Shown here: piece by piece, positions 1,224-4,418 of the stretch
Layout: every line of letters begins with the position of its first letter
Position numbering within the stretch: position 1 is the stretch's first letter
IMG/VR virus record: IMGVR_UViG_3300010279_000132
Span: 1-4,418 of that record
Source of the DNA: a virus
Lineage: Duplodnaviria > Heunggongvirae > Uroviricota > Caudoviricetes
Strand: one strand, 5' to 3'
DNA: 4,418 nucleotides
The notes under the pieces: generated by a model
Database searches by the model: none
What the model saw: the letters and a program-made list of their open reading frames with translations, nothing else
Told to the model about the DNA's origin: nothing
Made by a program: the position numbers and the translations under genes

Positions 1224-1520
1224 TCAGTCATTACTGATAGCGCCATAACGAGAGCGATAATTACGCAGGCGCGGGTCGATATATTCAGGGAAGTGGGTAT
1301 ATGTGGCTTTGCGGAATGGTCGGATTGATGTCTGGTAAATTCTCTCTCGTTCTTCTTTCTCTGCAAGCCATATACAGTGGCGAAATTCCTTTTCCTCTTT
1401 CGTTTCCTGCGGTAGAGACATTATCCGGTCGTAGTTTCTTCTGAATTTATCCAGCACCTCCGATACGGAATTGCCGGAACAGCGGCGCGCGTCATCCGCA
1501 CCATACAGAGGCGCTGGCAT
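1224..1520 (-). CDS. hypothetical protein, 98 aa
   Basis: ORF-track frame 1224..1520. ATG at 1520-1518 preceded by AGGAG with a 6-nt spacer, 13 nt after the ssb stop. No recognised domain. Confidence 0.6.
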
Positions 1521-1533
1521 GATTTTCTCCTGA

Positions 1534-2040
1534 TTAAATTGCGTGAATAGCGTGACGAGGGAAGGGGAGAGTTACTGGTGCAAAGGGTATATCGTCGTCA
1601 AAATCCATCGGAGGTTCGTTGTGTTGTGCTGGTGATGATTGCTGCTGTGGCTTCTGTGATTGCCTGCTGGCTGCTTGTTGTTTGCTGTCGCCAATGCCGC
1701 CAAGCATTTGCATCACGCCATTAATTCCGACATGAACCTCGGTTGTGTAACGGTCTTGCCCTGACTGGTCTTTCCACTTTCTGGTTCTCAGCATTCCCTC
1801 GAAATAAATCTGATCACCTTTTTTCACATACTGCCCAACGACCTCAGCCAGTTTCCCGGATACAGCAACACGATGCCATTCAGTCAATTCCTTTTGCTCG
1901 CCAGTATTTTTATCTCGCCATTGTTCTGACGTGGCTATTGTCAGGTTAGCGAACGCTGTTCCTGATGGTGAGTATCGAACTTCCGGGTCTTGTCCTACCC
2001 GACCAAGGATAATCACCTTATTTACGCCTCTGCTTGCCAT
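1534..2040 (-). CDS. ssb: single-stranded DNA-binding protein (SSB), phage-encoded
   Basis: 168-aa product [23 protein letters not shown]...TEWHRV...[19 protein letters not shown]...[13 protein letters not shown] closely parallels E. coli SSB as I recall it: OB-fold N-terminal domain, Gly/Gln-rich linker and acidic DDDIPF motif. ATG abuts the TAA of the upstream recombinase gene (TAAATG). The frame continues 15 codons past DDDIPF (see findings). Confidence 0.93.
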
Positions 2041-2748
2041 TTATGCCACCTGTTTTAGTTCGTTAACTCTGATGTTCACTATCTGAACGCATTTAGCCTG
2101 CTCCTCCTCGTTGCCAGCCATTAATTGCCAGTCACGCTGATAACGCTCGATGAGTTTTTTCTTGTCAGTTTCTGTTGACGCATAATCGCTGAAGTCTTTC
2201 AGGATTTGTTCGCAGTCAACCGATGGAGATTTCTGGTTGGTATCTTCTGGTGATGGTTTGTTATCTGATGCTGGGATTGCCCATCCCGGAAGCGATGGAG
2301 GGAGCCAGTAAAATCCTGTTCCATCCTTCAGTTTTGCCCTGTGCCACCCCTGCTTTTTATCGAGAGATGTTTGTGCGAAACCTTCCTCAAGGTTATACAG
2401 ATACCGACCGATTCCCCACTGAACGGCAGCGCGCTTCATTGCACCGGAACGACCACCTTTGACGGCTTCTACCTGTGTGTTTTCAGCAGCATCCCATTTG
2501 GTTACCCATTCGGAATCAATCTTTATTGATATGCCGCATTCAACGCCGCCGTTGTTGGGAATATCGCGGTATTCATTGCGCCATCCTGCTTTGCCGCAAA
2601 CATCGTCCAGGCGTTTCATGATTGCCCGGTTCGTGACATAAGCCAGCACCATAGCCCACACCTTGCCATCGCGTGTTTTACCGCTTTGCTGTATTCGCCA
2701 TTCGATATCTTCAGGGCTGAATGGCTCATCGAATTTGTTCAAATCCAT
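2041..2748 (-). CDS. Rad52/Rad22-family single-strand annealing protein (Sak-like phage recombinase)
   Basis: 235-aa product. Segments YVTNRAIMKRLDDVCGKAGWRNE and AMKRAAVQWGIGRYLYN resemble conserved blocks of the Rad52 N-terminal DNA-annealing domain as I recall them (Y..R.I..L...FG..GW and KRAL..FGN). RBS GAGGTG with a 4-nt spacer before ATG at 2748. Sits directly upstream of ssb, a typical phage recombination module. Confidence 0.8.
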   Translation of the reverse strand: MDLNKFDEPFSPEDIEWRIQQSGKTRDGKVWAMVLAYVTNRAIMKRLDDVCGKAGWRNEYRDIPNNGGVECGISIKIDSEWVTKWDAAENTQVEAVKGGRSGAMKRAAVQWGIGRYLYNLEEGFAQTSLDKKQGWHRAKLKDGTGFYWLPPSLPGWAIPASDNKPSPEDTNQKSPSVDCEQILKDFSDYASTETDKKKLIERYQRDWQLMAGNEEEQAKCVQIVNIRVNELKQVA

Positions 2749-2927: not shown

Positions 2928-3006
2928 GAATATCTCCTTCGTTATCGATTAAATCTTTCATCTGACGAATGAATTCTTCGTCTGACCAGTTATCTGTAAA
3001 ACTCAT
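2848..3006 (-). CDS. small hypothetical acidic protein, 52 aa (candidate)
   Basis: ATG at 3006-3004 overlaps the TGA stop of the kil-like gene (ATGA). Translation MSFTDNWSDEEFIRQMKDLIDNEGDIHVTCNHSEGEQVTETHVHAESSLVSP; stop TAA at 2850-2848. No properly spaced SD, so it would depend on translational coupling. Confidence 0.35.
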   Translation of the reverse strand: MSFTDNWSDEEFIRQMKDLIDNEGDIHVTCNHSEGEQVTETHVHAESSLVSP

Positions 3007-3155
3007 TTCCTGCGATACCACGGAAGGTTGATAGCTGATTTCATCGCTTTATTTGCTTCAAGCCACATTTTTGAATCACCAATAAATCTGGCTATTACTG
3101 CTTTGTTCTGTGCAGCTCGAAGCATCTTGTGATTGATGGCTATTTCATTGCGCAT
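3003..3155 (-). CDS. kil: Kil-like small protein (putative host cell-division inhibitor), 50 aa
   Basis: ATG at 3155-3153 preceded by GAGGT with a 6-nt spacer. Translation MRNEIAINHKMLRAAQNKAVIARFIGDSKMWLEANKAMKSAINLPWYRRK. Sits immediately 3' of cIII, as kil does in lambda, and is of similar size. The FIGD-containing segment matches my uncertain recollection of lambda Kil; the call rests mainly on synteny. Confidence 0.5.
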   Translation of the reverse strand: MRNEIAINHKMLRAAQNKAVIARFIGDSKMWLEANKAMKSAINLPWYRRK

Positions 3156-3271
3156 AATAAGACCTCAACTCTTTTCCATCCGTCACGTAATTTACGGGTG
3201 ATTCGTTCAAGTAAAGATTCATTTAATTGGAAGGCACCCATGCGAGCGCCTCCCGCGATTGCGTAAATCAT
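3140..3271 (-). CDS. cIII: CIII-family protein (inhibitor of host FtsH/HflB protease), 43 aa
   Basis: ATG at 3271-3269 preceded by AGGAA with a 6-nt spacer. Translation MIYAIAGGARMGAFQLNESLLERITRKLRDGWKRVEVLLCAMK. The stretch ESLLERITRKLRDGWKR matches the conserved central helix of lambda CIII as I recall it, and the N-terminus MIYAIAG parallels lambda MQYAIAG. Too short for the ORF track. Confidence 0.8.
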   Translation of the reverse strand: MIYAIAGGARMGAFQLNESLLERITRKLRDGWKRVEVLLCAMK

Positions 3272-3295: not shown

Positions 3296-4264
3296 TTAGT
3301 AGGTTATTTTTGTTGCGAATACTTCGCCTTTTACGATGGCTGTTATGATATTTTTAGCAACATCTTCTGATGCGCCAACCTTGATAAGGTCAGCAAGTAT
3401 TTTGTTATTTACTTCTTTCCGGTGAGCTTTATCCTTTGCTCTACGCTCTTCTTCGTCCTTGATTCTTTTTTCTTCTGCTATTCTGGCTTGCTCTTTTGCT
3501 TCAGCCTCGCGCCGGATTCGTTCAGCCTCCTCCTGTGCTTTTCGGCGTTCTGCTTCAATTGCCGCATGCTTTTCTCTTTCAGCTCGTTCTGCTGCCTCTT
3601 TTGCTTCGCGCTGTGCTCGTTGCTCGGCTTCAATGCGTTCACGCTCTGCACGTTCCGCTGCGGCCTTAGCTTCTGCTTCTCGCCTTGCTGCTGCTTCAAT
3701 TTCGGCTTTTGCCTTTGCTTCGGCTTCTGCTCTGGCTTTCTCTTCAGCTTCTCTTTTTAAGCGTTCTTCATGCTCTCGCTTTTCCTGCTCCGCTTTGAGT
3801 CTTGCCTCTTCTCTTTGGCGGTCAAATTCGCGATCCATCAAAATCGCTATTTCATGGTCAGACTCAATTTGCTTTGCGAGAGCTTCAGCTGCTGCCTTAG
3901 CTTCTTCTTCGGCTTTAATCCGCGCCTGTTCTTCCTCATAATCAGTAAGAGGCTGGCGTGCCTTGGCTTTCAGCTCATCAAGGCGATCACGCACTGTCTT
4001 GCGGTTGGCATCAATTAGCTTTGGAATTTCCTTCAGTTCAGCAACAAGGTCTTTGCCAACACCATCGAGATATGTTTTCGTCTGCGCAACTTTATACGCC
4101 AGAGAAGCGATCTCCTTTCTGCCCTTTGCCGTTGTGATATCAGGCACAAAGGACATAACTTCACGTTCAACCTTTTGAAGGATTTCTTCAATCTGGTCGG
4201 CAGACTGAAATACAGTCATTGCATTTGCTTTTTCAATAACAACTAATTCTGTTACTTCACTCAT
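3296..4264 (-). CDS. hypothetical protein, 322 aa, with a long E/R/K/A-rich charged helical (coiled-coil or single-alpha-helix-like) central segment
   Basis: ORF-track frame 3296..4318. I place the start at the ATG at 4264-4262 (MSEVTELVVIEK...), which has GGAGG (4273-4269) 4 nt upstream; the track's upstream ATG at 4318 has no RBS and would span the terminator hairpin. N-terminal about 130 aa look globular, the middle about 140 aa are E/A/K/R-rich, and the last about 35 aa (NKILADLIKVGASEDVAKNIITAIVKGEVFATKITY) are hydrophobic/amphipathic. No transmembrane segment apparent. Confidence 0.85.
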   Translation of the reverse strand: MSEVTELVVIEKANAMTVFQSADQIEEILQKVEREVMSFVPDITTAKGRKEIASLAYKVAQTKTYLDGVGKDLVAELKEIPKLIDANRKTVRDRLDELKAKARQPLTDYEEEQARIKAEEEAKAAAEALAKQIESDHEIAILMDREFDRQREEARLKAEQEKREHEERLKREAEEKARAEAEAKAKAEIEAAARREAEAKAAAERAERERIEAEQRAQREAKEAAERAEREKHAAIEAERRKAQEEAERIRREAEAKEQARIAEEKRIKDEEERRAKDKAHRKEVNNKILADLIKVGASEDVAKNIITAIVKGEVFATKITY

Positions 4265-4276
4265 ATATCCTCCATC

Positions 4277-4303
4277 AAAAAAATTGCCCTCACATTGGAG
4301 GGC
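4277..4303 (-). terminator. candidate rho-independent terminator (tL1-like) on the minus strand
   Basis: On the minus strand: GCCCUC-CAAUGU-GAGGGC (6-bp stem with 5 G:C pairs, 6-nt loop; plus 4286-4303) followed by AA and seven U (plus 4277-4285). The RBS of the next gene begins 3 nt after the U-run. Confidence 0.55.
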
Positions 4304-4342
4304 AAAGAAGATTTCCAATAATCAGAACAAGTCGGCTCCTGT

Positions 4343-4418
4343 TTAGTTACGAGCGACATTGCTCCGTGTATTCACTCGTTGGAATGAATACACAGTGCAG
4401 TGTTTATTCTGTTGTTTA
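4343..4418 (-). other. possible 3' end of a minus-strand ORF entering from beyond the window (24 codons then TAA at 4345-4343)
   Basis: One minus frame is open from the window edge: KQQNKHCTVYSFQRVNTRSNVARN*. Too short to distinguish from chance. If real, it would be the gene preceding the terminator, the position the N gene occupies in lambda. Confidence 0.2.
4366..4393. repeat. perfect 9-bp inverted repeat with a 10-nt spacer
   Basis: GTGTATTCA (4366-4374) ... TGAATACAC (4385-4393), spacer CTCGTTGGAA. Lies upstream, in transcription sense, of the terminator and the first gene. Function unknown. Confidence 0.6.

Follow-up and report, generated by a model that had tools for sequence, protein, structure and literature searches.

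Gene content of the locus

The window, meaning the whole 4,418-nt stretch of DNA that was analysed, carries every one of its genes on the minus strand, as judged from the list of open reading frames. Reading along that strand, the first gene past the intrinsic terminator described below encodes a coiled-coil protein of 322 amino acids (4264..3296, minus strand), a homologue of Sf6 gene 33 assigned to PHROG 1376. The open reading frame extends over 340 aa from a TTG at 4318, and the in-frame ATG at 4264, 18 codons further on, gives the 322-aa product. No Pfam match was obtained for this gene; its product bears the label 'TolA' or, in HF4s, 'phi80 Agt-like antitoxin'.

Further downstream, and also on the minus strand, are cIII (3271..3140; Pfam Lambda_CIII, E = 4e-15), kil (3155..3003; Pfam Lambda_Kil, E = 1.4e-20), a Rad52/Rad22-type (Erf-like) recombinase gene (2748..2041; PF04098, E = 5e-26), a gene for a single-strand DNA-binding protein, SSB (2040..1534; Pfam SSB, E = 1.6e-36), and the gene for the anti-RecBCD protein Abc2 (1520..1224; PF11043, E = 1.4e-60). 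The remaining downstream genes are two small open reading frames, listed between kil and the recombinase gene, a 157-aa open reading frame and a gene for a DUF7446 protein. Together these genes identify the early-left (pL) operon of a phage or prophage of lambdoid or P22-like type. The window's last 519 bases find matches in 329 phage records, at 95-99% identity in most cases. No exact source of the window was found among phages and complete E. coli genomes, where the best full-length relatives are ~98% identical across 84-85% of it.

A strong intrinsic terminator precedes the 322-aa gene

The elements between the conserved upstream sequence and the start codon were read on the minus strand as 5'-TTGCCCTC CAATGT GAGGGCAA TTTTTTT GAT GGAGG ATAT ATG. 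The transcript of this sequence contains a terminator stem-loop, UUGCCCUC-CAAUGU-GAGGGCAA (4305..4284, minus strand), with a stem of 8 bp, 5 of them G-C, and a loop of 6 nt. It is followed by a U7 tract (4283..4277, minus strand), which is the termination point predicted from the sequence and the terminator scan and also forms the 3′ poly-U tail of the small RNA discussed below. The Shine-Dalgarno sequence GGAGG of the 322-aa gene (4273..4269, minus strand) lies 3 nt past the U-run, and the distance from the T-run to the ATG (4264..4262) is 13 nt. A consensus scan of the minus strand detected no promoter-like site between the terminator and about position 3000. Because the gap is 13 nt and no such site is present as far as about 3000, the downstream genes must be transcribed through the hairpin.

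Folding of the hairpin alone gave -12.5 kcal/mol, and -13.0 kcal/mol was obtained with the U tail included; the folding energy of the 59-nt context around the hairpin had z = -2.67 relative to shuffles. The site was picked up by the consensus terminator scan (8 pairs, 5 G-C, 6-nt loop), a permissive scan that returned 3 sites in the window against 5.1 expected. Because of this permissiveness a stricter definition was applied, namely an 8-bp stem with at least 5 G-C pairs and at least 7 T in 8. Exactly one site in the window satisfied it, compared with a mean of 0.003 per sequence in 300 dinucleotide shuffles, and an equally strong motif occurred in 0.3% of the shuffles. The hairpin and U-run are thus no chance match and constitute a real, strong intrinsic terminator.

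An earlier sequence-only reading of this DNA had proposed an intrinsic terminator ending 3 nt before the ribosome-binding site, and had named folding energy and terminator prediction as ways to check it, with a weak hairpin as the objection. The sequence, both scans, the fold and the shuffles all confirmed the proposal, and at -12.5 kcal/mol the hairpin is not weak. The extent given in that reading, 4262-4303, places the site correctly and stops short only of the last two T-A pairs at the base of the stem (4304-4305). A bidirectional terminator was considered and rejected: on the plus strand no T-run comes after the hairpin, the next bases being AGAAGATTTCC, and the window has no convergent gene.

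The terminator is homologous to lambda tL2a

Alignment of the window with phage lambda revealed near-identity between 4277..4418 and the lambda ral-ea10 intergenic region (lambda 33905-34086). The homology ends at the T-run, beyond which lambda continues with ea10 and the window with the 322-aa gene. In the GenBank record of Sf6 (AF547987) the same hairpin bears the label 'terminator; homology to phage lambda; tL2A', and in that of mEp234 it is called a 'rho-independent terminator'. We conclude that the hairpin, together with its U-run, is homologous to tL2a, a terminator of the lambda pL (early-left) operon. Taken together with the identification, made below, of the same element as the 3′ end of a small RNA, this explanation of the site is given a probability of about 85%.

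The two terminators share the hairpin core GCCCUC/GAGGGC, which is identical and is followed by a U-run, and both are situated in a pL-type operon, right before the ribosome-binding site of the next gene; the lambda site lies downstream of N, as the window site, judging from relatives, probably does too. They differ in a stem-base pair, U-A in the window (4285) where lambda has U-G, in a loop base (4295, A in the window and G in lambda), and in the U-run, which has seven residues in the window and six in lambda. They differ as well in what follows: the next gene is the 322-aa Sf6-gp33-like gene in the window and ea10 in lambda, and its Shine-Dalgarno sequence begins 3 nt past the U-run in the window and 6 nt past it in lambda.

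The sequence-only reading had likened the arrangement to lambda N acting at tL1. The window site does resemble tL1 in being an intrinsic terminator inside a pL operon that N-modified polymerase would be expected to override. However, both the alignment and the Sf6 annotation assign it to tL2a; it has no homology to tL1, nor is it the first terminator downstream of N, and in relatives further terminator-like hairpins occur between N and the tL2a-type site.

N genes and nutL sites lie upstream in relatives

The window ends (4418) 113 nt upstream of the hairpin, and the N/nutL context was drawn from relatives that carry the same block. An N gene was found 0.5-1.5 kb upstream in four of them (Sf6, mEp234, HF4s and the E. 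coli STEFF_1 prophage), and a nutL or boxA/boxB-like site in three (Sf6, HF4s and the STEFF_1 prophage). In Sf6 an N homologue (Pfam N36, E = 1.6e-26), together with pL and nutL, is located 1.1-1.8 kb upstream, and mEp234 likewise has pL and N upstream. HF4s, the closest match at the terminator, has N ~650 nt upstream, preceded by GGCTCTTTAAC, which is boxA-like, and by a boxB-like hairpin. The STEFF_1 prophage shares 97.9% identity with most of the window and encodes a protein of 101 aa that hits PHROG 271, 'anti-termination protein N-like' (E = 5.6e-30); the arginine-rich N-terminus of this protein resembles phage 21 N. The gene is preceded by GGCTCTTTAACA and a hairpin, CTCAAC-CTAACC-GTTGAG.

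In lambda, the terminators of the pL operon, including the tL2 cluster, are overridden by N-modified polymerase. The earlier suggestion that expression of the downstream genes depends on antitermination is therefore right in outline, since a strong terminator stands in the sole route of transcription and N and nutL are present in relatives. The extension upstream that it had recommended, carried out here in relatives, led to pL, to nutL-like boxA/boxB sites and to an N-type antiterminator 0.5-1.5 kb away. It erred in the analogy with tL1 and in regarding the 322-aa gene as the first of the operon, since in relatives that gene follows N and one to three further genes; it also overlooked a small RNA. 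That 3′ ends do form at such a site is indicated by lambda Northern blots, in which RNAs ending at the homologous tL2a site were detected, as described in a preprint (bioRxiv 10.1101/2024.10.31.621285).

The terminator forms the 3′ end of a PreS homologue

That preprint describes LPR1, renamed PreS, an Hfq-bound small RNA encoded between ral and ea10 and discovered by RIL-seq during lambda infection (bioRxiv 10.1101/2024.10.31.621285). According to the same text, the 3′ end of lambda PreS is tL2a, Northern blots give bands of ~88 and 68 nt in the lytic cycle only, and the proximal face of Hfq binds the poly-U tail. PreS is reported there to activate dnaN translation and to repress alaS by direct pairing, as supported by compensatory mutations; seed-deletion mutants showed less replication of phage DNA and a lower plaque yield, effects that depended on Hfq. 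The RNA was further reported to be conserved, with at least 92% identity, in 2,537 genomes. PreS is also listed in a 2025 review (PMC12197685). Both the terminator, from the GenBank records of Sf6 and mEp234, and the small RNA with its wide conservation, reported in 2024, were therefore already known.

The supplementary primer table of Silverman et al. (bioRxiv 10.1101/2024.10.31.621285) sets the +1 of PreS, through primer P810, and the mutated triplets. The 3′ part of this cloning primer, which marks the +1 and starts GAGCAATGTCGCTCGTAACT, is present in the window at 4364..4345. Together with the alignment it defines a PreS (LPR1) homologue of 88 nt (4364..4277, minus strand), with +1 at the G of GAGCAAUGUCGC at 4364. 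In comparison with lambda PreS, 86 of the 88 positions are identical, and the window copy has one extra U. Both substitutions are in the terminator, one in the loop (4295, A for G) and one at the base of the stem (4285, A for G), the latter converting U-G to U-A.

The nucleotides validated in lambda for pairing with host targets are retained. Comparison with primers P838, P839 and P888 located the single-stranded seed region, CUUGUUCUGAUUAUUGGAAAUCUUCU, at 4331..4306 (minus strand). Within it the M1 triplet CUG, which pairs with dnaN, is intact at 4325..4323, and the M2 triplet GAA, which pairs with alaS, is intact at 4315..4313. The 3′ portion of the RNA has the anatomy of an Hfq-type module, namely AAAUCUUCUU, then the hairpin, then U7; a U/C-rich stretch ahead of a terminator hairpin is typical of Hfq-binding modules.

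Pairing of the window copy with dnaN was evaluated by duplex prediction. The seed segment and the E. coli dnaN leader (-45 to -16) formed a predicted duplex of -24.1 kcal/mol, a value reached by 0 of 2000 shuffles (mean -12.0, sd 2.4). The comparison was restricted to the seed segment in place of the full-length RNA, for which RNAduplex predictions against the dnaA-dnaN region were over-extended and no better than shuffles.

A search of the whole window against Rfam 15 (E <= 1) matched no family; because Rfam 15 has no PreS family, this result is uninformative on membership. No sigma-70 promoter for the small RNA was found near the block on the minus strand by consensus scan. Only poor -10/-35 matches were seen on manual inspection of the 34 conserved nucleotides upstream of +1 and of the sequence just past the window end in relatives.

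By sequence, then, the window carries an 88-nt copy of PreS (LPR1), a small RNA that depends on Hfq, and the terminator makes up the 3′ end of this copy: the 86/88 match to lambda PreS extends to an intact +1 and seed. The sequence-only reading, in treating the hairpin as a plain terminator, had missed the small RNA. The window and lambda copies share the +1 sequence, the 88-nt length, the seed with its M1 and M2 nucleotides and the Hfq-type 3′ module. They differ in genetic background, since the window has a P22-like or Sf6-like left arm (Rad52/Erf, SSB, Abc2) whereas lambda has Gam/Bet/Exo; expression, Hfq binding and targets were demonstrated for the lambda copy. A feature that resembles a plain terminator in front of a gene would accordingly be the 3′ end of a phage small RNA that alters host DNA replication.

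The small RNA and terminator form a conserved block at a mosaic junction

Conservation was assessed in 124 loci, which comprised 120 viral contigs with an exact 27-mer of the small RNA body and the loci from earlier comparisons. Per-column identity was at least 93% between position 4398 and the terminator's 3′ arm, and ~60% or lower outside. The hairpin and T-run were retained in ~122 of the 124 loci, with a median folding energy of -12.3 kcal/mol and a T-run of 5-8. Variation was mostly confined to the loop or the base of the stem, or preserved pairing. The window version (8 bp, U7) was among the strongest terminators of the set.

Past the T-run, at least six unrelated continuations were observed among these loci. 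They include lambda ea10, the window's gene, two other genes with a common TTTTTTTGAYGGAGGAWWTATG junction, a GGAGTAAACGATG gene and a GGAGGTTGCATG gene, and the commonest class has a second hairpin (AACGCTTCACTCGAGGCGTT) ahead of the next gene. The upstream flanks of the block were equally diverse. Beyond the viral contigs, the 122-nt block was detected in 2237 of the 5426 complete E. coli genomes (41%), with up to 6 copies per genome, and none of the eight RefSeq E. coli records listed annotates it. The element is an ordinary and very widespread one.

The ribosome-binding site stands 3 nt past the U-run because the conserved small RNA block ends there. That terminator and ribosome-binding site are so near each other thus reflects where a conserved cassette ends, at a mosaic junction that recurs among these loci in line with the boundary-sequence model of lambdoid mosaicism (PMC3233612), and is no peculiarity of the 322-aa gene. 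PreS function probably accounts for the extreme conservation of the terminator and the block. If the terminator served solely as a gate that makes the downstream operon N-dependent, with no functional small RNA, the strong intrinsic terminator directly in the transcription path, the N and nutL upstream in relatives and the historical annotation of the site as a terminator only (Sf6, mEp234) would all be accounted for. A bare terminator, however, needs neither conservation of at least 93% across a block whose flanks have both been swapped nor an 86/88 match to lambda PreS that includes the +1 and both validated pairing sites. PreS, moreover, exists and acts in lambda, as seen by Northern blot and RIL-seq in the preprint (bioRxiv 10.1101/2024.10.31.621285). 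An N-dependent gate with no small RNA is accordingly considered improbable.

The block coincides with a feature already named in the Sf6 annotation, where the 113 bp before the tL2A hairpin are labelled 'bsq4; boundary sequence'. Mapped from the Sf6 misc_feature to the window, this boundary sequence occupies 4398..4286 (minus strand). As in the lambdoid boundary sequences, the coordinates coincide and both edges join alternative modules. The linker in the window differs in being explained by a functional small RNA and terminator, and not as a linker devoid of any other role.

The Sf6 label, the mosaic junctions with many different flanks at both ends of the block and the boundary-sequence model of lambdoid phage mosaicism summarised in PMC3233612 would also fit a block that does nothing except promote module exchange between lambdoid phages, its hairpins being incidental. 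Such a linker has no need of a functional terminator or of a seed under conservation, most natural variants are confined to the loop or preserve pairing, and lambda mutants lacking the seed replicate less well, as the preprint states (bioRxiv 10.1101/2024.10.31.621285). A purely recombinational role is thus very improbable. The linker and small RNA ideas are nonetheless compatible, in that selection on the small RNA would maintain homology that is later used by recombination. A conserved PreS copy would then supply a concrete reason for one classic lambdoid boundary sequence, the linker being conserved as it encodes a functional RNA.

The variable T-run also bears on possible translation of the block. 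A 32-aa open reading frame is present on the minus strand (4359..4261), and its TGA stop codon shares bases with the start codon of the 322-aa gene (ATGA), a stop/start overlap that might point to a small protein. The GGAG ahead of it is, however, just 2 nt from its ATG, the frame crosses the terminator hairpin, T-runs of 5-8 among relatives shift the frame and alter the C-terminus, and lambda has no such annotated gene. That this frame encodes a protein is scarcely credible.

Proposed route of transcription through the element

By analogy with lambda, the PreS-tL2a element would be expected to terminate transcription, to release an Hfq-bound RNA that regulates host mRNAs, and to permit N-dependent read-through. 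Polymerase arriving without effective N modification would halt in the U-run. The released RNA would bind Hfq through its U-rich stretch, GC hairpin and poly-U tail, and its 5′ end would be trimmed to yield species of ~88 and 68 nt. Through pairing of the seed with its host mRNAs, the ribosome-binding site of dnaN would then be opened and alaS repressed, and phage DNA replication would thereby be helped. Polymerase modified by N at nutL would instead pass the hairpin and transcribe the 322-aa gene, cIII, kil, the Rad52/Erf-like recombinase gene, ssb and abc2, all of which would lack a promoter of their own past the terminator. The end of the block is a junction at which recombination has repeatedly attached different downstream genes, each with its own or a shared ribosome-binding site.

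Predicted pairing of the Shine-Dalgarno sequence and an upstream hairpin

In read-through RNA, the GGAGG was predicted to pair with AUCUUCU (4312..4306), the 3′ end of the seed. The predicted probability that the Shine-Dalgarno sequence is unpaired was 0.01-0.23 wherever the junction was of the GGAGG type seen in the window and 0.5-0.65 in the lambda/ea10-type junction, where it is mostly free. According to these fold predictions, the pairing could damp translation of the first downstream gene, and it might just as well be a fortuitous match between a Shine-Dalgarno sequence and a CU-rich Hfq/seed stretch.

An additional cis role, in which an AUCUUCU-GGAGGAU helix extends the terminator stem and masks either the ribosome-binding site of the 322-aa gene or the seed within the mRNA, would be in keeping with the low accessibility in window-type junctions and with the minimum free energy structure of the 59-nt context, which includes the extended helix at an ensemble frequency of 0.63. 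Any Shine-Dalgarno sequence will, however, complement a CU-rich stretch, and AUCUUCU is accounted for as part of the Hfq module and the seed. To close, the helix has to span a 10-nt one-sided bulge, the Shine-Dalgarno sequence is mostly free in lambda, and the three genes with a common junction also have the same Shine-Dalgarno sequence and are thus not independent evidence. We regard such a cis role as rather doubtful.

Immediately upstream of the PreS sequence, a 12-bp hairpin, GUGUAUUCAUUC-CAAC-GAGUGAAUACAC (4393..4366, minus strand; -15.7 kcal/mol), ends 1 nt before the +1 of the small RNA. Six loci have an alternative hairpin at the same place. Of the 11 pairs that the two types share, 8 have both partners replaced and still pair, and the three next to the loop do not differ. 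These pairs were counted directly, as MAFFT left the two types out of structural register. Changes on both sides of a pair that preserve pairing argue for selection on the structure of the upstream hairpin. No mention of this hairpin was found in the accessible portion of the PreS preprint (bioRxiv 10.1101/2024.10.31.621285). It is possibly a determinant of 5′ processing or a 3′ stabiliser of the upstream mRNA.

Unlikely, but consistent with the parts described, is an organization of the whole block as an RNA cassette, in which the structurally conserved hairpin abutting +1 would set the 5′ end through processing of the pL transcript, the terminator would split transcription between small RNA and operon mRNA depending on the effectiveness of N, and the seed would pair, in read-through mRNA, with the Shine-Dalgarno sequence of any gene that recombination has placed downstream. 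Were the block such a cassette, output of the small RNA would be coupled to translation of the first downstream gene.

Structured elements at the 5′ side of PreS

Immediately upstream of the copy of the Hfq-dependent sRNA PreS in the window, the minus strand carries a 12-bp hairpin, GUGUAUUCAUUC-CAAC-GAGUGAAUACAC (4366..4393, -15.7 kcal mol-1), the 3′ edge of which lies 1 nt short of PreS +1. An alternative hairpin occupies the same position in six related loci (L012, L028, L055, L072, L076 and L120). Comparison of the two versions showed that 8 of the 11 shared pairs differ on both sides with pairing preserved. The hairpin may be a 5′-processing determinant of PreS or a 3′ stabilizer of the upstream mRNA; mention of it was not found in the examined portions of the PreS preprint (bioRxiv 10.1101/2024.10.31.621285).

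Further upstream, beyond the end of the window, lies another terminator-like hairpin that is partly conserved, with the sequence AAGGCTGCCTGATGGYGGCCTT TATTTTT (4474..4495 in L001, 4970..4996 in L002, and just after ral in lambda). Its distance from the conserved block (bsq4 of Sf6) is approximately 25 nt in lambda and mEp234 and approximately 525 nt in Sf6, and a degenerate copy is present near the block in HF4s. Wherever this hairpin sits close, the sRNA cassette is flanked by two terminators.

The junction between the terminator and the downstream gene

In the read-through RNA, the Shine-Dalgarno (SD) sequence of the 322-aa gene (GGAGGAU, 4267..4273, minus strand) was predicted to pair with AUCUUCU (4306..4312), the end of the PreS seed, an interaction that would lengthen the terminator stem. 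The modeled probability that the SD sequence is unpaired was 0.01-0.23 in the junction type of the window, whereas it was 0.5-0.65 in the lambda ea10 type.

Other junctions were found among the related loci. The commonest class (e.g., L086, L106 and L120) has a shorter terminator stem, with GAGGGCC/T and T5-6, and a second hairpin, AACGCTTCACTCGAGGCGTT-TTCGTT, approximately 20 nt beyond the first terminator and ahead of the next gene, which looks like a tandem terminator arrangement. In two loci, one of which is L099, unrelated sequence with a hairpin and T-run of its own (GCCGCTCTATATGGGCGGC ATTCTTTT) takes the place of the 3′ third of PreS, terminator included. Since the replacement hairpin and T-run again lie directly ahead of an SD sequence and ATG, this is a module swap within the PreS sRNA.

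Open reading frames at and beyond the terminator

A 32-aa ORF (4261..4359, minus strand) begins 5 nt into PreS and crosses the terminator; its TGA stop codon and the ATG start codon of the 322-aa gene overlap as ATGA. The ORF is probably non-coding, because 2 nt separate its SD sequence from its start codon and because the length of the T-run varies among relatives, shifting the frame.

The product of the 322-aa gene (3296..4264, minus strand) has a highly charged central repeat region rich in alanine, glutamate, lysine and arginine. A Pfam match was not found for this protein, and its labels conflict across public records ('TolA', 'coiled-coil protein', 'phi80 Agt-like Gam antitoxin' and 'similar to D3 orf53').

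Distribution of the PreS block in E. coli

No annotated feature covers the 122-nt PreS block in the eight E. coli records listed. The block was present in 2237 of 5426 complete E. coli genomes, with a maximum of 6 copies per genome, and 20 of its places in these genomes were on plasmids.
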